Both the position numbers and the translations under genes were made by a program. From the IMG/VR virus record IMGVR_UViG_3300030332_001087, positions 1 through 25,235 of that record: a stretch of DNA of 25,235 nucleotides, one strand, 5' to 3'. Source of the DNA: a virus. Its lineage: Duplodnaviria > Caudoviricetes. Shown here in pieces: positions 1,415-17,895 of the stretch. The notes below the pieces were generated by a model, which worked only from the letters and a program-made list of their open reading frames with translations, searched no databases and was not told the origin of the DNA. Numbering within the stretch: position 1 is the stretch's first letter; each line of letters starts with the position of its first letter.

Positions 1415-1732
1415 TTAGAAGGGTAGGTCGTCGTCTTCAGATTCTGTATTCTTTTTGTCTGGTTCTTTTTTAGACCATTTTTCTTTAGCCTGTTCTTTTG
1501 TCAGTACAATGCATTCGGAAGAATACTTCTGTACATGAACTTCATCCATAGGACGAACTGCTACCTGTAGGGCTGGTCTGTTATCCCCTTCCTGTTTTTT
1601 GGCTCCTACCCAGTGCCAGCCTGCTTTGGCTATATATATTTTACCATTAAAATCATCCATCCAGTCATCAGTTTTACGGTCATTGTTCCAAAGACCAGCT
1701 TTGTTTTCTGTTATATATGTCTTTTCTGCCAT
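1415..1732 (-). CDS. SSB-like protein
   Basis: Acidic C-terminal tail EDDDLPF typical of SSBs; adjacent to recT; AAGGA RBS. Confidence 0.6.
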   Translation of the reverse strand: MAEKTYITENKAGLWNNDRKTDDWMDDFNGKIYIAKAGWHWVGAKKQEGDNRPALQVAVRPMDEVHVQKYSSECIVLTKEQAKEKWSKKEPDKKNTESEDDDLPF

Positions 1733-1753: not shown

Positions 1754-1868
1754 GGGGGCAGGTGCATGGAGTCACCTACCCCCCTAACACTGTCAATAAC
1801 GATGGAGAGATGCCCACGAAGAGGATTGTAGTTGTGGGTTTCGCAGGCAAAATTGTCCGACAGTGCTA
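1754..1868 (-). ncRNA. Candidate structured RNA with an anti-RBS loop (ACUCCAUG)
   Basis: Two stems (1785-1794/1859-1868 and 1754-1764/1773-1783), each with a G-U wobble on the minus strand that would be a C-A mismatch on plus; loop 1765-1772 reads ACUCCAUG on minus. Confidence 0.55.
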
Positions 1869-2741
1869 ATTGTTAAATTCGTCTTCCGGGTACACCAGAG
1901 CAGGGTCTTGCACCTCATCAAATTCCGGTTGTGGAGTTGAAGTAGAAGTAGAAGTATCCAAATCAGCTACTTCCTGCTCGTTATTCTGCATAATTATATG
2001 CCTTGGCTCTTTGTCTTCCACCAAGTCATCTATGTGAGCAGCTTCGCTCATCAGGATGCCATGCTCGGTTGTAGACTTCGGCAGCTTCTTGTCACAGAGC
2101 TGTCTAAGAACAGTCTTATAAGCCATAGCATCAAAGTCTGTCTGCCAAGGGCTGGACTCGGATGAGAACCCCCTGCTGAAGTGCTTTGCGTGGGCAATGA
2201 TGTCTTCACGGGTCATTACCTGAAAGGCTGTGCCACCATGCTTTAGTTCAGCGTAAGCATAGTATATACTGCCTTCGCCACGGCTGTTAGACAGCTTGGG
2301 TCGGTGGTGAAAGGACAATCCATTACTGCCCTTGGAGTAGTCAAACTCGTCCCCGTCGCAGACCTTGTCATAGTCCAGTGATTTAATCAGTCCAGTATTC
2401 CAAGCCAGTTTCATCATGCCCCGGTATTCAATCAGGAAAGTGCAATCCTGACCGTAGGGAATAAGAGCAGCTTCACTGAGTGGGCTGTTAGGCTCTAATC
2501 CATACCTTGCTGATTCCATCATCGACTTCAGTACCGATGCTGGTTTGCATTGCATCAGCTTTGGCTGTACTGACAGTGCAGTCAAACAGGAAGATATATA
2601 TCTCTTCGCAGACAGGTTGCCCTGTGGTAGAGCGTTGGATATCTGGGTATAGAATGCACTGCTTTGGATTGTTTCCTTGAGACTGGTCTGATTGTTAGTC
2701 AGTCCCTTTGACCTTTCTTTTGCTTTTTGTATTTCAGTCAT
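1866..2741 (-). CDS. recT: RecT-family ssDNA annealing recombinase
   Basis: PKLMQC...S...GLEPNSPL.EAALIPYG...IEYRGMMKLA and SPWQTDFDAMAYKTVLRQL motifs. Confidence 0.93.
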   Translation of the reverse strand: MTEIQKAKERSKGLTNNQTSLKETIQSSAFYTQISNALPQGNLSAKRYISSCLTALSVQPKLMQCKPASVLKSMMESARYGLEPNSPLSEAALIPYGQDCTFLIEYRGMMKLAWNTGLIKSLDYDKVCDGDEFDYSKGSNGLSFHHRPKLSNSRGEGSIYYAYAELKHGGTAFQVMTREDIIAHAKHFSRGFSSESSPWQTDFDAMAYKTVLRQLCDKKLPKSTTEHGILMSEAAHIDDLVEDKEPRHIIMQNNEQEVADLDTSTSTSTPQPEFDEVQDPALVYPEDEFNN

Positions 2742-3664
2742 TATAACTCCTTCTTAATTACAAATCTTCTGGAACCAGACTTCATAGAAACATATTCAGA
2801 ATATATATCAGGATGCTCTTTCTTAAATAATTCCTTGTCAAAATGTTCCCTGTCCTTGGTTTGTTTCCATGTCACAAGCTGGCGACCATTGTATTCCAGT
2901 ACCTGTTTGTCTTCGAGGACATTCATTAACTGCAGCTTGAGTTCCTTTATCTCACTCTCGCAGTCTGATTTCTGTTGATTGCAGACCCTTAACTGGACGG
3001 CTATATTATATATATCATCATCAGCCTGTACTATCTCATCTTCCGAAACAGTGCTGTACAACAGGTTCGCATCTCCAATGGTCTGGCACGGTGGTGCTAC
3101 ATTGCCTTCCACATTAATTTTCCAGAATTCTACCAATGTATCCATCAGGCTCTTGATGAACTTATCATCCCGGTGATATTTCTCTATCACCATCTGCTTG
3201 TTATAGCCGAGGGAAAGAGATGCGAAATAAATGTAGGGCGCATCCGTGACCATCATCTGGTGCTGTAACTGGACGAAGTAGTGGTCTGGAATCTCACCAT
3301 CCCATTTCTGGGATGTAGTCTTGAACTCAACAGGAACCTTTTCACCAACAACCATGCCGTCAAGGTTGGTTGTTATGAATGGATGGTCATCGTGTATTCT
3401 GATTTTATTGTCCTGCTTAACCTTCAGTCCCGTTTCACGAAAGAACAAATCTCGTAAGATAGGTTCCATCTCCCTACCCAGATACATTGCAAGGTTATCA
3501 TCCTTGGGCTGAAATCCGTTCACCAGTTCATTCCATAATTCAACTGCTGTAAGCCAAGGATGAACTCCTTTGACTGCTGCTGACTGGGATGCTCCGATGC
3601 TTGGATTTAGCTGTCTGTCCAACAGCCAGTCATCATAATTGAGTGGTGCTTTTCTGTATGTCAT
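2741..3664 (-). CDS. YqaJ-like (lambda-exonuclease family) recombination exonuclease
   Basis: WL..R...IGASQSAAV.G..PW, G..MEP, NLDG, VEFKT and PDHYFVQLQHQM motifs; coupled to recT. Confidence 0.92.
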   Translation of the reverse strand: MTYRKAPLNYDDWLLDRQLNPSIGASQSAAVKGVHPWLTAVELWNELVNGFQPKDDNLAMYLGREMEPILRDLFFRETGLKVKQDNKIRIHDDHPFITTNLDGMVVGEKVPVEFKTTSQKWDGEIPDHYFVQLQHQMMVTDAPYIYFASLSLGYNKQMVIEKYHRDDKFIKSLMDTLVEFWKINVEGNVAPPCQTIGDANLLYSTVSEDEIVQADDDIYNIAVQLRVCNQQKSDCESEIKELKLQLMNVLEDKQVLEYNGRQLVTWKQTKDREHFDKELFKKEHPDIYSEYVSMKSGSRRFVIKKEL

Positions 3665-3886: not shown

Positions 3887-3915
3887 AAGTTACAATAGGT
3901 TACAATAAGTTGCAA
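3887..3915 (-). promoter_or_regulatory. Sigma70-like promoter with TGTAA direct repeats
   Basis: TTGCAA-cttat-TGTAA-cctat-TG-TAACTT (17 nt spacer) upstream of the recombination genes. Confidence 0.6.
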
Positions 3916-5581: not shown

Positions 5582-5690
5582 TGGTTTCTCCTCAAAATTT
5601 TGCCGTAAGGGACGGTTTTATGCGGAGTCCCGACCAAGGTAGGGTAACCGCCCCAAACGGCTGTCATGGAGCAAATTTGCTCGTTATTTG

Positions 5691-6273: not shown

Positions 6274-6514
6274 CATCATCCTCCTTGAGTGATATTTTAT
6301 TAGGGAAATCAATATATAACACGCTGTCATCTTCATTATCGCAACCCTTTACTCCGCATATTCCAGAGCCTAAATCAGATATACCAAGCCCTTCTATCTT
6401 GTCTGAATGTTTCCGCTGACAATCTCCGCATATCTGTGACCACATGACATTTCCACCGAAACACTCACCTACCACATCATCAAATTCAATTCCATTGTAA
6501 TTAAATTTTCTCAT
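6254..6514 (-). CDS. Cys-rich hypothetical protein
   Basis: CAUGGAG-N6-AUG start; CGDC and CGVKGC. Confidence 0.7.
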   Translation of the reverse strand: MRKFNYNGIEFDDVVGECFGGNVMWSQICGDCQRKHSDKIEGLGISDLGSGICGVKGCDNEDDSVLYIDFPNKISLKEDDDDNKHK

Positions 6515-6544
6515 TTTTCACTCCATGTTTGTTATTTTTGATTT

Positions 6545-6605
6545 CCATCGACCCCAGATTGCTCTGGGGGTTTCGACTGGTAATCATCCAGTCTCATCAG
6601 GATGG
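6545..6605 (-). ncRNA. Hammerhead ribozyme HH1 (type I)
   Basis: CCAUC CUGAUGA GACUGG-AUGAUUA-CCAGUC GAAA CCCCCAGA-GCAA-UCUGGGG UC|GAUGG; full core, one bulged C in stem III; predicted cleavage between 6550 and 6549. Confidence 0.9.
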
Positions 6606-6608
6606 GCG

Positions 6609-6776
6609 TTACTCTTCTAAATGTCTTATCAACCTTTCAAGACCGTCCTTAATGCCATTATGTTCTGCTTGTGTATGGCTATCATTAATCCATTCAGTAT
6701 CATCGATTATGTCTTTTGCTATATTCCTGATGCGTTCCAATGATACATTCTTTTTTGTTTCTTTTTTCTTTTTCAT
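6609..6776 (-). CDS. 55 aa hypothetical protein (MKKKKETKKNVSLERIRNIAKDII...)
   Basis: Not in the ORF track; CAUGGAG-N6-AUG start; stop just before HH1. Confidence 0.7.
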   Translation of the reverse strand: MKKKKETKKNVSLERIRNIAKDIIDDTEWINDSHTQAEHNGIKDGLERLIRHLEE

Positions 6777-6802
6777 TTTAATCTCCATGTTTAAGGTTAC
6801 TT

Positions 6803-6831
6803 AGTTTACAGTTGTTTACAGTCCCATGCAA
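6803..6831 (-). promoter_or_regulatory. Internal sigma70-like promoter with TGTAA direct repeats
   Basis: TTGCAT-gggac-TGTAA-acaac-TG-TAAACT (17 nt spacer), same layout as 3887-3915. Confidence 0.6.
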
Positions 6832-6834
6832 GGG

Positions 6835-7071
6835 CTAATTCACTCTCCTGAGTGCAGTCCCTTCATCAATCTGGTAGTATTCACCGTTGTGGTATCTCCA
6901 GTAGCCACCATCAGTATCGATGTTGATGTACCTTCTGGTGGCTATGCTCTTGTACAGGTTGATATCACCCACTGCGCCCATGTGCATGAAATCGCAGCAG
7001 TTTATTTCATTTGGTTTTCTTTCGCTGAGATTCTCCAGTGGAACCCAGTTTATTGTTGTGCTTATGTTCAT
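6835..7071 (-). CDS. Hypothetical protein (78 aa)
   Basis: Start reassigned to ATG 7071 from the CAUGGAG-N6-AUG signal. Confidence 0.7.
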   Translation of the reverse strand: MNISTTINWVPLENLSERKPNEINCCDFMHMGAVGDINLYKSIATRRYINIDTDGGYWRYHNGEYYQIDEGTALRRVN

Positions 7072-7072
7072 T

Positions 7073-7492
7073 TCATTCTCCATGATTTGGTTTTGTAAAA
7101 TAACTATTTGCCTTCCAAGGTCTGCAATCCCAACTGTCCAGTAGTACACCACCTACGACTGCTGTGAGATGACCGCAAGTAACGAAGATATAGATTCCGT
7201 CGGGGTCAACAGGGATATTCTTCAGAGAGTACTTTCTTCTTCCGCTGTGGGTCAATGGGCTATGTTTCACCCATCCCCTGTCCGACAGCCATTCCTCATA
7301 GCATCTTGGGTCATTTGGTAGGAATCCAATATCCCTGCCCAATTCAAACAGTTCATTCCAAACGACCAGATAGTCTGTATCGGTAGCATGAGCCAAAGCC
7401 CTCACTACACAATCGTTGGTTCTATCCTTTTTCAGTTTACAAGACCAGTACTTGTCTCTGCCACCAAACGATTTTTTGTATTTTATTCTCAT
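7073..7492 (-). CDS. Phage protein with a possible papain-like Cys-His-Asp triad
   Basis: NDCVVRAL...GHLTAV...DSWD; CAUGGAG start. Confidence 0.55.
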   Translation of the reverse strand: MRIKYKKSFGGRDKYWSCKLKKDRTNDCVVRALAHATDTDYLVVWNELFELGRDIGFLPNDPRCYEEWLSDRGWVKHSPLTHSGRRKYSLKNIPVDPDGIYIFVTCGHLTAVVGGVLLDSWDCRPWKANSYFTKPNHGE

Positions 7493-7779
7493 TTATCACT
7501 CCATGTTTGGTTAGTTTTAGGAAATGGTGAACATCTTGTCTCTTCATTCCAGTCACATAGTTGTAGGTCGGATAAGGGACAAACACTGCATGGTAGCACT
7601 TCCTTGTGACCACATTCTGAACAATCAGATTTTCCATCTTGGGTTATTTCAGCATCACATCCACATTCTGGACAACCTTCATCACATTTAGCATCTGTCC
7701 ATAATTTAGAGTAATCCCAACTTAATGCATCTGGCTCAAGACCAAATTTGCTGAGAAGGTTTGTTAGTTTTTTACTCAT
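7489..7779 (-). CDS. Cys-rich (Zn-ribbon) hypothetical protein
   Basis: CPECG, CSECG, CSVC; start reassigned to ATG 7779. Confidence 0.7.
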   Translation of the reverse strand: MSKKLTNLLSKFGLEPDALSWDYSKLWTDAKCDEGCPECGCDAEITQDGKSDCSECGHKEVLPCSVCPLSDLQLCDWNEETRCSPFPKTNQTWSDK

Positions 7780-7805
7780 TTTATTCTCCATGTTATTTTC
7801 AATTA

Positions 7806-7865
7806 GTAGCACCATGCTACAGAGCGCAGGGCAGGAATCGAACCTGCCCAGTACCATACTGCGCT
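7806..7865 (-). ncRNA. tRNA-like element TLE1
   Basis: AGCGCA GUA-UGG-UAC U GGGCAGG-UUCGAUU-CCUGCCC UGCGCU CU GUAGCA-UGG-UGCUAC. Confidence 0.75.
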
Positions 7866-7880
7866 TATTATATATATATA

Positions 7881-8579
7881 CTACTCATACTTGAACAGGT
7901 ATTCCTCGTGTACCCTTGGGTCGTAGTCTGTCTCGGTCTTAATCCGTTTCAGCAGGTGAGAGATAGTTACGGAAATACCATCATCTGTCTGTCTCTGCTT
8001 GGTGATAAGGTCAACCAACTTCACTGCCTCTGCTCTTGAGAGTTCAATCTGGGACTCTTCCTTGTATACGACCTTCACTTGAGTAAAACCCTGATTATCG
8101 ACTATGTAGTATTTTATATCCTGTTCATTTTCGATGATTATCATATCACCAACGCTCATGGACGTATGGGCAATCCAACCCATAACACCTGCCCAGTAGT
8201 ACCTTCTGTCGGATGCACATAGTTTTGCATAGTCAGGATTCTTCTCGTCAAACCATTTATTCGACTTTATCATCCTGTCAACATCACCATCGTCTTGGTC
8301 TTGACTGAACTCTGCATCGTAGCCATTGAGATGCTTGAGTTGTTCGGTGCTGATATGATTGAACTCTTCCCAGAGCGCATTCATAACTTGGTTGTCGTCG
8401 TCGTTGTTGTTTACTGTCCTGACAGCAACAGTCTTCCAGTTAGAAGAGATTACATCAGTTTTGATGTATCCCCATCTCTCGAACAGGGATGCACAGTGTT
8501 CCTTCAGCCATTTAACACCCATCATGGCATCCCTGCCAAACTGCCCAGTTACAGCGTATTTGATTGTTACTCGTTTCAT
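7881..8579 (-). CDS. Hypothetical protein with a YodL-like motif
   Basis: HTSMSVGDMIII...YYIVDNQGF resembles the YodL SLSVSDV motif; start reassigned to ATG 8579. Confidence 0.5.
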   Translation of the reverse strand: MKRVTIKYAVTGQFGRDAMMGVKWLKEHCASLFERWGYIKTDVISSNWKTVAVRTVNNNDDDNQVMNALWEEFNHISTEQLKHLNGYDAEFSQDQDDGDVDRMIKSNKWFDEKNPDYAKLCASDRRYYWAGVMGWIAHTSMSVGDMIIIENEQDIKYYIVDNQGFTQVKVVYKEESQIELSRAEAVKLVDLITKQRQTDDGISVTISHLLKRIKTETDYDPRVHEEYLFKYE

Positions 8580-8599
8580 TTCTAACTCCATGTTTGGTA

Positions 8600-8662
8600 G
8601 CGGATTCATTTCCGCAGAGCCTTGGGGAAGAATCGAACTTCCCCACTGCACCATGCAAGGCT
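8600..8662 (-). ncRNA. tRNA-like element TLE2
   Basis: AGCCUU GCA-UGG-UGC AGU GGGGAAG-UUCGAUU-CUUCCCC AAGGCU CU GCGGA-AAUGAA-UCCGC. Confidence 0.75.
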
Positions 8663-8677
8663 TATTATATATATATA

Positions 8678-9298
8678 TTAGCCTGTTCTAACAAAACCGA
8701 AGTAAAACCTCGGTTGATGGATGAACTCCAATGTGCCTTTGACTCCGTCGCTCTTGCGAATCACCACTACACAAGGTGATGCAAATCCCTGCACTGTAAA
8801 GTCCTGCTGCAACTCTTTGGTGTTCCAGACCTGACCATGTTGCTCTTCGAGTTCTTCCCGGTCAGGTGTAAAGTCTTCAAAGCAACGGTTACAGAATTCG
8901 TGACCGTTGAATAGCTTTGTATCACCCTTGTCAACTTCTTGGTCACAATTCTCGCAAGTAGTTTTATCGTCGTCAGCCTGAACATAACTCGGAAATTTCC
9001 GAGAGTCTACTGTTGGGCATTTCCAGAATCCATCTGCTGTGCCGTCAGTATAGTCCACAAACGTACCGTCAAGGTCATTCCAATACTGCTTTGCCAGTTC
9101 ATATCCACAACCAGTACACTTCAGGAAATACTCGAAGTTGCTGTTGTCATGGTCTTGATGCCATAGCTCCCAGTTATCGTGGGATTCATAGCCTTCATAC
9201 TTGCCATATTCATCTTCCAGAGGGAACTTACACCTACATCCCTGACCTGCTTGAGCAGTCACTATTCTGGATACCGCTTTGATTAATGTTCGTTTCAT
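8678..9298 (-). CDS. Cys-rich hypothetical protein
   Basis: Several CxxC pairs; C-terminal QVWNTKELQQDF...RKSDGVKGTLEF...PRFYFGF domain; CAUGGAG start. Confidence 0.7.
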   Translation of the reverse strand: MKRTLIKAVSRIVTAQAGQGCRCKFPLEDEYGKYEGYESHDNWELWHQDHDNSNFEYFLKCTGCGYELAKQYWNDLDGTFVDYTDGTADGFWKCPTVDSRKFPSYVQADDDKTTCENCDQEVDKGDTKLFNGHEFCNRCFEDFTPDREELEEQHGQVWNTKELQQDFTVQGFASPCVVVIRKSDGVKGTLEFIHQPRFYFGFVRTG

Positions 9299-9315
9299 TT
9301 TTTACTCCATGATTA

Positions 9316-9380
9316 GAGCGACTTCATTGTCACTCAGAGGGTAGGGGGAGAATCGAACTCCCCCAGTACCATACTACCCT
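9316..9380 (-). ncRNA. tRNA-like element TLE3
   Basis: AGGGUA GUA-UGG-UAC U GGGGGAG-UUCGAUU-CUCCCCC UACCCU CU GAGUGAC-AAUGAA-GUCGCUC; begins inside the ardC-like stop codon. Confidence 0.75.
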
Positions 9381-10323
9381 ATTTGGCTTCGTATTCAGTG
9401 CCAAGGATGTGGTCACAGGCTTTAGCCGACCTTGACCCAGCCCAGACAATCCAGTCTTCATTTTCGGACAATTTAGACTTCCATCCAGAGATATAACTTG
9501 CGCTGTTCTGGATGACTGAACTTCTGTCAATCCCTGCTATGGCGCATAGGAAGGTTGAACCAAGTTCAGCAACCAGTTCTTCCTTGCTGTACTCATGGCT
9601 CCCGAAGAAATTGGTTCCAGTAACACCTTCTCTCGCCAATCTGGACTTATGACCAGTCGAGTGAATCAACTCATGGAAGAATGTCGAATAGTATTCCTCG
9701 TCAGAGACAAAATACTCTGGCTTGACCATGTGAACTTCGTCAGCAGATGGACGATAGTGACAGCTATCTGCTTGGTCATGGTAGACCTTCGGTGAATCAG
9801 GATAATTAGCAATTATCTCGTCACAGGCTTCGACAGGAGTAAAATCCCGAACTTCATCATCGTCCTTGATAGCAGGATAATACTTCTCAGGAAGACCGTC
9901 ACATTGGTTGGCTGAGAATACGTTGAACGAGAAGAGAGAAGGGAATGGTGTTCTCTTGCCAGTACCCTTACAAGCAGTACAACTATCACCGATGCATCCA
10001 CTGTTGTCCCAAGATGAACCAGTACAGTCAACTGGTGGATGAAATTTCCAGTAGTGAATAGGAAATGACTTCTCACCCTTCCTGACCTGACCACCAAGTT
10101 TCTTAGCCTGACCAAAAGTAAGCCACCAAGGGGATTCATACCCTGCACAGCCCAGAATAGCCAGATTGGTTCCACGATACACCTTCTTGGTCGATACTGA
10201 CCGAGGTGCATTGGCTTTGCCACCATTCCAAGGCTTTTGCCAAGGAACAATGCCCTGCTCCAGAAAACCAAGGATTCTCTCGGTGATTCTCTTGCAGATT
10301 GATTGATATTGTTTTTTGTTCAT
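9379..10323 (-). CDS. ardC: ArdC-like antirestriction protein (ssDNA-binding domain plus zincin-like metallopeptidase domain)
   Basis: PWQKPW, YRGTN, WLTFGQA..LGGQVRKGEK, HELIHSTGH and YSKEELVAELGS; start reassigned to ATG 10323. Confidence 0.88.
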   Translation of the reverse strand: MNKKQYQSICKRITERILGFLEQGIVPWQKPWNGGKANAPRSVSTKKVYRGTNLAILGCAGYESPWWLTFGQAKKLGGQVRKGEKSFPIHYWKFHPPVDCTGSSWDNSGCIGDSCTACKGTGKRTPFPSLFSFNVFSANQCDGLPEKYYPAIKDDDEVRDFTPVEACDEIIANYPDSPKVYHDQADSCHYRPSADEVHMVKPEYFVSDEEYYSTFFHELIHSTGHKSRLAREGVTGTNFFGSHEYSKEELVAELGSTFLCAIAGIDRSSVIQNSASYISGWKSKLSENEDWIVWAGSRSAKACDHILGTEYEAK

Positions 10324-10340
10324 TTTGAACTCCATGTGTT

Positions 10341-10394
10341 GGTTAAGACAGGGCAAAAGCCCTGTTTCGAGTATTGAACTCTCGTCAGTTAACC
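10341..10394 (-). ncRNA. Hammerhead ribozyme HH2 (type I)
   Basis: GGUUAA CUGACGA GAGU-UCAAU-ACUC GAAA CAGGGC-UUUU-GCCCUG UC|UUAACC; predicted cleavage between 10347 and 10346. Confidence 0.95.
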
Positions 10395-10751
10395 TTCCAG
10401 TTTTTCTAATTCATCGACTATCTCTGACTCCCTATTTCCCCATAGTTCTGACTGTTCGTAATCAGAGTCGTAATCAGGGCTGTCTGGGTCTTCGTTGATG
10501 TAGTTTTCTTTCTGCACCAAGACTTCTTCTAACTCATTTTGCAAGACAATTCTCCTGAGAACAATATTGACGAATTCATAAGCATATGATTCACCAAGGT
10601 GATTACGTCGCTTAATGTCTGCTGTAATATGTGGAATTGTTCTCTCCCTGCCTAATTCAGAGTACAGGGCTGTCCAATGGTCGAGACTGAGAGTAATCAG
10701 TTCTTCTATCGACTCGAACTGTCCTTTGATGATGTGTTTTAGTGTTTCCAT
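10389..10751 (-). CDS. Acidic hypothetical protein flanked by two hammerheads
   Basis: 120 aa from ATG 10751 (CAUGGAG-N6-AUG); stop codon forms HH2 stem I. Confidence 0.75.
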   Translation of the reverse strand: METLKHIIKGQFESIEELITLSLDHWTALYSELGRERTIPHITADIKRRNHLGESYAYEFVNIVLRRIVLQNELEEVLVQKENYINEDPDSPDYDSDYEQSELWGNRESEIVDELEKLEG

Positions 10752-10766
10752 TTTTAACTCCATGTT

Positions 10767-10821
10767 GGTTAAGACGGGGAACGAGTCCCCGTTTCGGGCA
10801 TTCAGCCCTCGTCAGTTAACC
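10767..10821 (-). ncRNA. Hammerhead ribozyme HH3 (type I)
   Basis: GGUUAA CUGACGA GGGC-UGAAU-GCCC GAAA CGGGGA-CUCGU-UCCCCG UC|UUAACC; predicted cleavage between 10773 and 10772. Confidence 0.95.
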
Positions 10822-11295
10822 TGAAGTAATGCTACCGTCTACAACAGCAACTTTAAACTCGCCAATTTTGATATGTCCATGCCTATCTGTTTTATGGACA
10901 ACATCACCTTCGGTGATTGCAGGGTCTTCGACTATGACCTTGTCATCTGCAGTCTCAGGAAGAGAATCTATATCGTGGACAAACCGATAATCCCTTGAGC
11001 AAACATAACCGACATGATATGTCAGTGAATTGTAATCAGAATGAAAATGCGGTAAGTCCTTCCCTTCTGCCCTCAGTAAACGATTGATATGAAGTATCAG
11101 GGTTGGTGGATACAATTCACCATCACTTATGCCATATTCAGCACCATCGTTTGCATCAGAAACCAGAACAACATCCCTTCCTAATGCATCAGTGAAACAA
11201 CTTCTGTTATGAAGGTTAGCCCTTCTTATCCTCTGACTGAGTCTGGTCAGTTTTTCAGTGTAACTCTCATAGTCCTGTTTTGTCTTGAATTCCAT
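10816..11295 (-). CDS. Hypothetical protein, first gene of the leftward operon
   Basis: CAUGGAG-N7-AUG start at 11295; stop codon forms HH3 stem I. Confidence 0.7.
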   Translation of the reverse strand: MEFKTKQDYESYTEKLTRLSQRIRRANLHNRSCFTDALGRDVVLVSDANDGAEYGISDGELYPPTLILHINRLLRAEGKDLPHFHSDYNSLTYHVGYVCSRDYRFVHDIDSLPETADDKVIVEDPAITEGDVVHKTDRHGHIKIGEFKVAVVDGSITSG

Positions 11296-11340
11296 GTCTA
11301 TTCTCCATGTTAGTGTTTTGTGGGGTAGTTCCCATGCCAT

Positions 11341-12452: not shown

Positions 12453-12651
12453 TTCTGACTGGAAGAATTGGACAAAGGGTTTTCCATACAGTGATGATAT
12501 AGATGACCCGGATTATATACGGGACAGATTAGAGTTATTCAGGACAAACGGTAACGGATGGTGGTGGAATGCACCGAGCAAGCAGAAGAAGGAGCCAATA
12601 AATAAAAGAAGGAGAAGAAGGAAGAATGTTAAAATTTCTAAAGACCAGTGA
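12445..12651 (+). CDS. Hypothetical protein
   Basis: 68 aa, overlaps both neighbours, basic tail. Confidence 0.6.
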   Translation: MVNSDWKNWTKGFPYSDDIDDPDYIRDRLELFRTNGNGWWWNAPSKQKKEPINKRRRRRKNVKISKDQ

Positions 12652-12847
12652 ATTATGCAGCATATTGGGGGTATCTCGTCAGTGTGTATATAAGTGGAGG
12701 AATCAGGATAATCCTTTACCTACTGCTATTAATAATACGAATGGTGGTGGTAAGTTAATCAGGTATAAATTAGAAGATGTAATGGAATGGTTAAACAGTA
12801 ATGGAAAAGAATCAAAAGCCGAAATTTTACGCACAGAAGAGGACTAA
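12626..12847 (+). CDS. Excisionase/AlpA-like winged HTH DNA-binding protein
   Basis: FLKTSELCSILGVSRQCVYKWR...P...IRYKLEDVMEWL. Confidence 0.85.
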   Translation: MLKFLKTSELCSILGVSRQCVYKWRNQDNPLPTAINNTNGGGKLIRYKLEDVMEWLNSNGKESKAEILRTEED

Positions 12848-12971: not shown

Positions 12972-13740
12972 CACAGACATATGGAAGAAGAGATGGTTTC
13001 GCAGTTTATCACCGAGATATAAGAGTGTATGGTGGTATATAATCAGTCAGTGTGACCATGCTGGAATTTTTGAGCCAGATGTAGAGATAATGAGTCTTTT
13101 CATAGGTGAGGAATTAGATGAGGGTAAGATACTGGAAGTATTCAAAAATAGGATAGAATACTTAGATAATGGTAAGTGGTTTATACCAAAATTTATCCAA
13201 TTTCAGTATAATGCAGCTACACCTGAAGAGTTAAATCAAAACAACAGGGTACACAAGTCTGTATACGACAAACTACAGAAATATGGTATAACATTTAGAC
13301 CCATCGATGAAGCTACCAAGGGTCATAGTAGGGTCATGGATGGTTCATCTAAGGGTCAAGGTAGGGTCAAGCAAGGGTCATCGAAGGTTCATGTAAGGGT
13401 CATGCATGAAGCTAAAGATAAAGATAAAGCTATATACAAAGATAAAGATAAAGTAATAATAACTAATAATAATAAAAAAGCAGTATTTAAGATACCAAAT
13501 GAAAAACAAGTTAAAGAATATTGTAAAGAGCGTGGAAATTCTATTAATGCGAGTCATTTCATTTCATTCTACGAATCCAAGGGTTGGATGATTGGGAAGA
13601 ACAAGATGAAAGATTGGCAGGCAGCAGTGCGGTCTTGGGAGCAGCAGGAGATAGCTGAACAGAAAAAGGCTGATGAGAGGAAGCCTAAGACGAGAGCATT
13701 CATTCAGGAATCAGACAGGAACAGACCCCGTGATTTCTAA
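12952..13740 (+). CDS. Phage replication initiator (replisome organiser)
   Basis: N-terminal KRYFDTDIW...WFRSL...CDHAG domain, DKDKDK linker, C-terminal F..P...V.EYC.ER...FYESKGWMIGKNKMKDWQAAVRSWE; internal iterons. Confidence 0.85.
   Translation: MAKRYFDTDIWKKRWFRSLSPRYKSVWWYIISQCDHAGIFEPDVEIMSLFIGEELDEGKILEVFKNRIEYLDNGKWFIPKFIQFQYNAATPEELNQNNRVHKSVYDKLQKYGITFRPIDEATKGHSRVMDGSSKGQGRVKQGSSKVHVRVMHEAKDKDKAIYKDKDKVIITNNNKKAVFKIPNEKQVKEYCKERGNSINASHFISFYESKGWMIGKNKMKDWQAAVRSWEQQEIAEQKKADERKPKTRAFIQESDRNRPRDF
13319..13480. repeat. Putative replication origin: 8 iterons at 11 bp period plus an A/T-rich tract
   Basis: (A/T)GG(G/T)TCA at 13319, 13330, 13341, 13352, 13363, 13374, 13385, 13396, followed by AAAGAT repeats and AT-rich sequence. 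Confidence 0.8.
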
Positions 13741-17722: not shown

Positions 17723-17895
17723 TGCCTTTTAATGATATTATAGATATACCTATTATTCGACCTGAAAAAGTTGTTGAAAATGAATACGAGGGTAGAATAC
17801 CGTATACAAAGAAAGATGCATTGCGAAATGTATTCAGAGCAAAGAGAAGTAATATAATCAACAAAGGAAAACAAAATGGCAGAAACCCAAAATAG
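17722..17895 (+). CDS. Hypothetical protein (57 aa)
   Basis: TAATG-coupled start at 17722. Confidence 0.55.
   Translation: MPFNDIIDIPIIRPEKVVENEYEGRIPYTKKDALRNVFRAKRSNIINKGKQNGRNPK

Follow-up and report, generated by a model that had tools for sequence, protein, structure and literature searches.

Shut-off of early phage genes that are toxic to the host is understood in few systems. T4 uses a protein for this purpose, the nuclease RegB, which inactivates many early mRNAs through a shared GGAG-containing Shine-Dalgarno (SD) motif (PMC3014915, in the part available). Antisense control by an RNA loop facing a ribosome binding site (RBS) is established for the c4 RNA of phages P1 and P7 which, according to the available sections of PMC5320573 and PMC12197685, is cut from a longer transcript and directs unpaired loops at an RBS of its own message, loop and target changing together. 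This RNA, which is processed by RNase P and has a role in immunity, has three stem-loops over ca. 77 nt, of which loops a' and b' both pair, and its target is the antirepressor message. RNAs from the 3' side of a message may also act in this way, as OppZ and CarZ of Vibrio cholerae, released by RNase E and dependent on Hfq, pair with their own or linked RBSs in a negative feedback (PMC7398697), and in S. aureus RNAIII and RsaE present an unpaired C-rich seed to the SD of several targets (PMC3861533), both as given in the accessible portions of these reports. Clustered hammerhead ribozymes located between small genes and next to an anti-restriction gene such as ardA in prophages are known to cleave and are expected to release single-gene mRNAs (PMC3088659, text available in part). 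Finally, the Start Associated Sequences (SAS) of Cluster K mycobacteriophages, and of Microbacterium cluster EF, are RBS motifs conserved beyond the SD that occur before non-structural genes only, and a single inverted copy was noted in four K1 phages; the function of SAS was called unknown on description (Pope et al. 2011, PMC3203893; see also PMC7302621) and still was in 2024 (PMC11373665), as far as the accessible text of these papers goes.

The locus described here is, judged by comparison of its sequence with that of relatives, a real and conserved predicted RNA element that changes in step with an RBS tag specific to the phage, a pattern pointing to antisense control by a loop seed. It was found in a window of 25,235 nt that corresponds to the entire IMGVR_UViG_3300030332_001087 record, a tailed-phage contig. 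The products of its rightward genes include terminase, a P22-like portal, the major head protein and a tail spike. On the minus strand, ten small genes including one for ArdC are followed in leftward order by genes for an HNH protein, a tyrosine recombinase, a recE-like YqaJ exonuclease (2741..3664), RecT (1866..2741; PF03837, phrog_148), an SSB-like protein (1415..1732; phrog_18154, E 8e-6) and RusA. The leftward array is probably early, given ArdC and the run of small genes of unknown function. Many relatives carry marine metagenome record names. A search of 185,579 species genomes with RecT returned only four distant matches and no prophage relative, and among cultured phages the capsid had no match while all RecT matches were below 60%; Marinimicrobia had been a guess as host and was dropped, the literature search giving it no support. 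Two further features were noted in the window, an identical 23-nt RBS and start shared by the SSB-like gene (1723-1745, minus) and by a 323-aa gene preceding that of the capsid (17863-17885, plus), and an 11-nt tandem repeat (13319-13413, plus) within a 262-aa gene preceding that of the terminase.

The predicted RNA begins at the recT stop codon and is composed of two domains on the minus strand, a long 5' stem (1785..1868) with an internal loop and a large apical loop, then a 3' hairpin (1754..1783) whose 11-bp GC-rich stem (arms 1773-1783 and 1754-1764) has one U·G pair and closes an 8-nt seed loop, ACUCCAUG (1765..1772). This loop, complementary to the RBS tag CAUGGAG(U), costs 0.5 kcal/mol to open. 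Hairpin and loop are present exactly as stated in the earlier note, between recT and the SSB-like gene, the RBS of which is untagged and lies outside the hairpin; same-strand genes continue downstream. Over positions 1740-1880, the minus-strand fold reaches -50.7 kcal/mol (z -4.19; 0/200 shuffles as good) and the plus-strand fold -43.4 kcal/mol (z -1.87; 12/200 shuffles as good). Rfam gave no match at 1650-1950 up to E 10, nor over the element when the whole window was scanned, and ARAGORN detected no tRNA. The hairpin was not called by a terminator scan and has no U-tail in the window; such a tail follows it in only 7 of 44 loci, the other 37 having no terminator-like U-tail to mark the 3' end of the predicted RNA, so that a free RNA of 115-130 nt is no more than putative. 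A 42-codon ORF starting with TTG over the element was rejected as a gene, having no RBS and lying in a region whose length varies freely among relatives.

The motif CATGGAG occurs ten times on the minus strand of the window, and all ten copies are RBSs of ten consecutive genes that form the tagged array (6514..11309, minus). These genes start at 11295, 10751, 10323 (ardC), 9298, 8579, 7779, 7492, 7071, 6776 and 6514, with tags at 11302, 10757, 10329, 9304, 8585, 7785, 7498, 7077, 6782 and 6520, respectively. The tag is thus found at 10/10 array RBSs versus 0/25 other starts examined, 12 of which have GGAG; it precedes no structural gene in the window, and tags always overlap the SD at start-codon distance. 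As had been claimed from the window alone, the loop is the perfect complement (8 nt) of the RBS at six array genes and matches 7 nt at the other four, while the 25 other starts match over 3-5 nt. Net loop-RBS pairing energies after opening costs range from -6.2 to -10.0 kcal/mol for the ten tagged genes versus -5.3 to +2.2 kcal/mol for the rest. The word CATGGAGT has six minus-strand copies and a single plus-strand copy, which is the loop, for an expectation of 1.1, and 7 copies were reached in 0/100 shuffles. Inverted copies of the tag are located at 1765 and at 5665 in the window. The latter is a second seed copy (5665-5672), mostly paired, within a structured non-coding element (5595-5685, minus; z -4.1) that has no Rfam match and similar flanking sequence in L226 and L229. 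The recE-like gene has an untagged RBS in the window, and its RBS is tagged in 13/31 loci examined, as feedback would predict. Tags were also observed on two genes downstream of recT (L002, 5666 and 5877; also in L229 and L263), so that membership of the tagged set extends beyond the upstream array.

Relatives were collected by searches with RecT, YqaJ and the recombinase, yielding 129 loci (designated by L numbers) at RecT identity of at least 44%, with 71 distinct downstream sequences. In 29 loci having at least 4.5 kb upstream, the tag was defined as the commonest RBS word and picked blind to the intergenic region. Six tag classes were obtained, each with its own complement within ca. 110 nt after the recT stop: CATGGAG (the window, L102, L103, L110, L213, L222, L226 and L229), AAAGTGGAG (L105, L108, L233, L234 and L284), AGAAGGAGAA (L109), ACAGGAG (L119 and L287), AAAGGACAAG (L115) and AAGGAAAACAC (L114). 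Mean complementarity between loop and tag was 7.6-10.7 nt within a class versus 4.3-7.3 nt off class, and 18/29 loci surpassed their own dinucleotide shuffles (1000 each) at p<=0.053. The match after recT was not significant in the remaining 11 (L263, L242, L111, L285, L117, L112, L277, L118, L013, L017 and L016), most of which are distant (RecT <55%); L263 and L242 keep the loop and have only 1-2 tagged starts in the sequence examined.

That loop and RBS motif should co-vary in relatives had been set beforehand as a test by the earlier note, and this is what the RecT trees (one quick, one FastTree) indicate: of 27 rows, 19 are labelled for both loop and tag and agree in 19/19 cases, with six changes of each label, the other 8 rows lacking seed, tag or both. 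Because the recT of L233 may be recombinant, the joint changes are counted as 5-6. In this locus RecT falls near the clade of the window whereas loop and tags belong to the AGTGGAG class. This points to a recombination event inside recT that left loop and array matched. A locus-wide 8-mer scan further ranked the post-recT seed first or second among all candidates in 6/6 class representatives, whose matches to their own tags give a combined p of 7e-7 that is indicative only, since class labels and representatives were picked after seeing the data. The CATGGAG class persists across RecT identities of 56-100%. Single positions bear out the match as well, since L110 combines TCATGGAG with a loop ending in A and the L109 loop has U opposite a tag position that varies between G and A. 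Tag variants with one mismatch show no uniform trend, 14 being compatible with G·U pairing, 2 being other transitions and 21 transversions. In L287 and L114 much of the seed is taken up by the stem (unpaired probability 0.3-0.5). The comparisons give good support to loop-RBS pairing on the coding strand.

Among ten other loci subjected to the same scan, plausible seeds were found only in L112 and L277. L112 (ca. 9455-9525) and L117 (9919-9985) have a similar GC-stem hairpin located before the recombinase gene, not after recT; their loops differ despite near-identical RecT, and the best match to own RBSs is found in L112. In L277, and also in L280 and L281, an 11-nt complement of the lineage RBS motif GAAAGGAAGGT occurs in a hairpin loop inside the rusA frame, 427 nt past the recT stop in L277.

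The hairpin itself was detected in 44 of the 45 distinct loci with RecT identity of at least 55%, the remaining contig ending early. The suggestion that G-U pairs favour the minus strand extends to these relatives, in which the coding strand gives the better fold in 39/44 loci and G·U pairs occur in 43/44. From 28 aligned hairpins, 11 sharing the loop register were picked for stem alignment: 96% of their cells are paired, 6/12 pairs show changes on both sides and the 8-nt loop is invariant, with a stem covariation score reached by 0/500 shuffles. One stem pair is U·G in 7/11 of these hairpins, which would be a mismatch on the opposite strand. Scanning viral contigs for the pattern of loop plus 3' arm returned 27 loci, of which only the L009 contig has both a strong hairpin and a tag array, while a covariance model of 38 positions gave one strong match per close relative and missed the divergent classes.

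A second anti-SD-like tract, UCUCUCCAUC (1801..1810, minus), reported earlier in the long 5' stem is indeed present, in the internal loop and with a 6-7 nt match to the tags, but is not conserved, being kept in only 6/45 relatives at RecT identity of at least 55%. Better conserved is the apical loop CCACAACUAC (1828..1837, minus; loop 2), which is fully unpaired and was absent from the earlier note: its CAACTAC-type core occurs in 28/45 relatives, and a loop of the ATACCTCC type, a generic anti-SD, in 14/45, replacing CCACAACUAC in the L263, L252 and L109 lineages. Loop 2 is replaced or missing in some lineages. By eye, variants of the CCACAACUAC loop are mostly A>G or C>U, as if it paired with a fixed RNA. 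No consistent site for loop 2 in phage DNA was found in 15/16 loci examined, L263 being without this loop type, and its matches number 2-6 per record versus 8-22 for a reversed control in three whole records. With no partner in phage DNA, that of loop 2 is probably host-derived or a protein.

Upstream of recE-recT lies a sigma70-like promoter motif (3887..3915, minus) made up of TTG-N3, a 17-nt spacer, TAnnnT and a GTAA direct repeat, and a second copy (6803..6831, minus) precedes the tagged gene starting at 6776. The motif was found 0.9-2 kb upstream of recT in 30/31 loci at RecT identity of at least 55% and in 0/16 below, counts to be read with the pattern having been derived from these very sequences; in four loci of the AGTGGAG class it also stands ahead of the entire array. 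No promoter was seen by eye inside the 3' end of recT in 28 loci. A separate middle phase for the RNA, as initially proposed, is not supported, since the motif upstream of recE-recT also precedes tagged genes (6831-6803 and the AGTGGAG arrays). As it is common to tagged genes, promoter class does not explain timing, and the shared motif fits a delayed feedback better than a separate temporal class. The GTAA direct repeats, 10 bp apart, constitute a candidate operator, and an HTH_17 gene (12626-12847) a candidate regulator.

Structured elements precede 6/10 tagged genes in the window. Three are hammerhead ribozyme motifs on the minus strand, which by inspection have an intact core (CUGANGA, GAAA and UH) with three stems: one at 10765..10821, with a predicted cleavage site located a few nt 5' of the gene 10751 tag, a second upstream of the ardC tag (10338..10394), and a third upstream of the tag of gene 6514 (6545..6606), the only one scored by Rfam (RF03152), at 28.5 bits against a gathering score of 56.3. 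The three others are tRNA top-half mimics upstream of genes 9298 (9335..9380, an acceptor-like stem with a T-loop arm and then a small hairpin), 8579 (8615..8662) and 7779 (7820..7865), all on the minus strand. Similar hammerhead motifs were observed in L102, L103, L109, L226 and L229, and two Rfam Hammerhead_II matches in L081. The T-loop of the mimics, in the window as in L287, L119, L114 and L110, is GGTTCGATTC, and each mimic is followed by a small hairpin whose loop often contains ATG. L287 has seven T-loop hairpins, and in L287 and L119 at least one mimic forms a minihelix of 12 bp with ACTA behind it, which would make it a likely substrate of RNase P. Should these leader elements cleave the message, each target would be an RNA of its own, to be reached by pairing in trans.

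These data lead us to propose, with a probability of about 0.6, that an antisense RNA derived from the recT 3'UTR accumulates and blocks translation of the tagged cistrons. Transcription of the RNA would start at the conserved promoter that precedes recE-recT, the RNA being either the 3'UTR of the recT mRNA or a piece cut from it, while hammerheads and tRNA-like elements may process the long early message to RNAs of one gene each, with short open leaders. The seed loop would reach its ten targets in trans, and pairing over GGAG would keep the 30S subunit off. The outcome would be a delayed negative feedback closing the host-takeover phase, comparable to what T4 does by means of the RegB nuclease. 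We infer repression from the loop-RBS duplex covering the SD, as we do the RNA ends and the timing from sequence. Points against this reading are the shortness of a 7-8 bp duplex for which no helper protein was identified, the 11/29 loci with no significant match after recT, the partly buried seed of L287 and L114, the mixed one-mismatch tag variants, the rarity of U-tails and the promoter motif shared with tagged genes.

The main rival relies on the same pairing, with the RNA of a resident phage mainly serving to shut down early genes in an incoming phage that has the same tag, so that changes in tag and loop would create new immunity groups as for c4 in P1 versus P7. The occurrence of six tag classes within one phage group suggests such diversification, and in c4 a change of 4 nt in loop and target ends cross-reactivity (PMC5320573, available part). 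A tyrosine recombinase gene, terminal repeats in one complete relative and the operator-like repeat at the promoter also speak for this reading. Yet the RNA lies inside a recombination and replication operon, inspection by eye revealed no promoter at the recT 3' end that would serve this RNA alone, prophage relatives were missing from the species genomes searched, and the constancy of the CATGGAG class is slow for an arms-race tag; immunity as the main role is considered unlikely. That the RNA would instead be an adaptor or activator, loop 1 docking on tagged mRNAs while the CCACAACUAC loop recruits a host RNA, a ribosome component or a nuclease to raise translation or direct cleavage, appears quite improbable: it would account for a second loop that is fully open, conserved and partnerless in phage DNA, but the SD itself lies within the seed duplex and cannot pair with 16S RNA at the same time, and loop 2 is dispensed with in some lineages.

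The plus strand deserves consideration as well, since covariation is compatible with either strand, both of which fold, and a CAUGGAG-bearing loop could then serve as a decoy titrating a tag-binding protein, CsrA/RsmA-like or encoded by the phage. ANGGA, the CsrA-type core, is contained in the tags. One protein would however need to keep up with all six tags, no promoter is conspicuous on the plus strand, and both the better fold of the coding strand and the distribution of G·U pairs, including the U·G pair in 7/11 stems, speak for the minus strand, leaving the decoy very improbable. We give equally little credence to the idea that the tags are by-products of cassette duplication or shuffling (PeSL-like), or DNA recombination sites guided by a two-loop RNA, the hairpin having no translational role. 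Leaders do look like exchangeable cassettes that bear hammerhead or T-loop elements, the genes for RecT and a tyrosine recombinase lie nearby, and PeSL cassettes are described as driving shuffling in T4-type phages (PMC2839356, available in part). Duplication nevertheless explains repeated tags and not a single inverted, loop-exposed copy that tracks them in six classes; the fixed position of the tags over the SD is another objection, a site of 7-9 nt does not suffice to target DNA, and no DNA partner was found for loop 2. Hardly any weight is left for an ordinary stabilising or terminating hairpin at the recT end that matches the tag by chance. In the window alone 16/1000 intergenic shuffles match as well, and U-tails follow a few of the hairpins, but the six representatives match their own tags (with the combined p, chosen after the fact, given above), the loop is invariant while the stem varies, and class complementarity and tree agreement contradict a coincidence.

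With the antisense RNA from the recT 3'UTR as the preferred reading, the locus would represent a regulon-wide and reprogrammable RNA switch in which one loop co-evolves with the tag on about ten cistrons, and the six natural tag/loop pairs would provide a ready set of orthogonal translational repressors. The full-text literature search and Rfam revealed no described phage RNA antisense to a shared early RBS tag, the search having excluded subscription journals and bioRxiv supplements, and the motif tables of PMC5737381 and PMC10690425 could hold one unnamed.

When compared with the systems introduced above, the hammerheads resemble the prophage clusters in lying between small genes beside an anti-restriction gene and, unlike what the available part of PMC3088659 describes, alternate with tRNA top-half mimics and precede tagged RBSs. 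With RNAIII and RsaE, the element has in common an unpaired C-rich seed facing the SD of several targets, as far as the accessible text of PMC3861533 allows the comparison; there is no homology (no Rfam match), the loop has CUCC and not UCCC, and the targets here share a lineage-specific tag that reaches beyond the SD. The parallel with RegB concerns a GGAG-containing motif common to many early messages, whereas specificity here apparently resides in an RNA loop re-written with the tag and not in a protein (PMC3014915, same part). Like OppZ and CarZ, the element lies directly 3' of a CDS on the same strand, starting at the recT stop, and is proposed to act in negative feedback on linked RBSs, but the terminator with U-tail at the operon end is wanting (7/44 loci, none in the window) and, in so far as the available text of PMC7398697 shows, it differs in being intercistronic and in addressing a whole tagged array. 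The trait shared with c4 is an unpaired loop complementary to, and co-varying with, an RBS in the phage's own messages, to which excision from a longer transcript would be added for the predicted recT 3' RNA (c4 as in the available sections cited above). The fold has two domains with a second loop lacking a phage target, a single seed located after recT faces about ten tagged cistrons in place of one antirepressor message, and the Rfam C4 covariance model gave no match here, nor in a scan of 7 relatives at the gathering score. The likeness to c4 and to OppZ/CarZ is therefore one of action, with membership of neither given the absence of an Rfam match, the different fold and the lack of a terminator.

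The SAS of Cluster K offer a parallel of another kind. The same pattern of an RBS motif conserved beyond the SD, confined to non-structural genes and accompanied by inversely oriented copies (one in the loop at 1765 and a mostly paired one at 5665) is found here, with a different sequence (CATGGAG and not the 13-bp SAS consensus) and in unrelated phages. The SAS is invariant among the genomes read, and in Anaya, Angelica, Peanam, LilPharaoh and Adephagia its lone inverted copy is exposed in the loop of a hairpin. In Anaya it makes up the loop (mean unpaired 0.87) of a long hairpin located in a non-coding gap, and the anti-SAS region has matches in 193 phage records; among 12 aligned phages the loop is an exact anti-SAS in four, an imperfect pyrimidine tract in four and none in four. 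TM4, Pixie and Microbacterium phage AnnaSerena had no accessible anti-SAS in the ca. 50 kb examined of each. The Adephagia loop is located in the gap between genes 92 and 93, the reported start of late transcription in the available part of PMC11373665. This right-end gap (Anaya, L532, 48700-49070; Adephagia, L561, 58,450-58,880) was seen to contain a promoter-like motif and a conserved multi-hairpin RNA of ca. 300 nt with the anti-SAS loop, annotated as a hypothetical gene in some records. The SAS hairpin parallel is a lead. It may, tentatively and with the odds against it, be extended to an all-RNA address system in which host-takeover genes carry private RBS tags, ribozymes and tRNA mimics cut the message and one re-writable hairpin silences the set, tag and loop pairs forming RNA-based immunity groups; the same design would explain the SAS of Cluster K and their inverted copy in a loop where late transcription begins. 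Because the inverted SAS of K1 phages also lies in a hairpin loop, the question is testable in cultured phages, and the comparison suggests what conserved RBS motifs of the SAS kind could be for in phages, a hypothesis concrete enough to be addressed on M. smegmatis.
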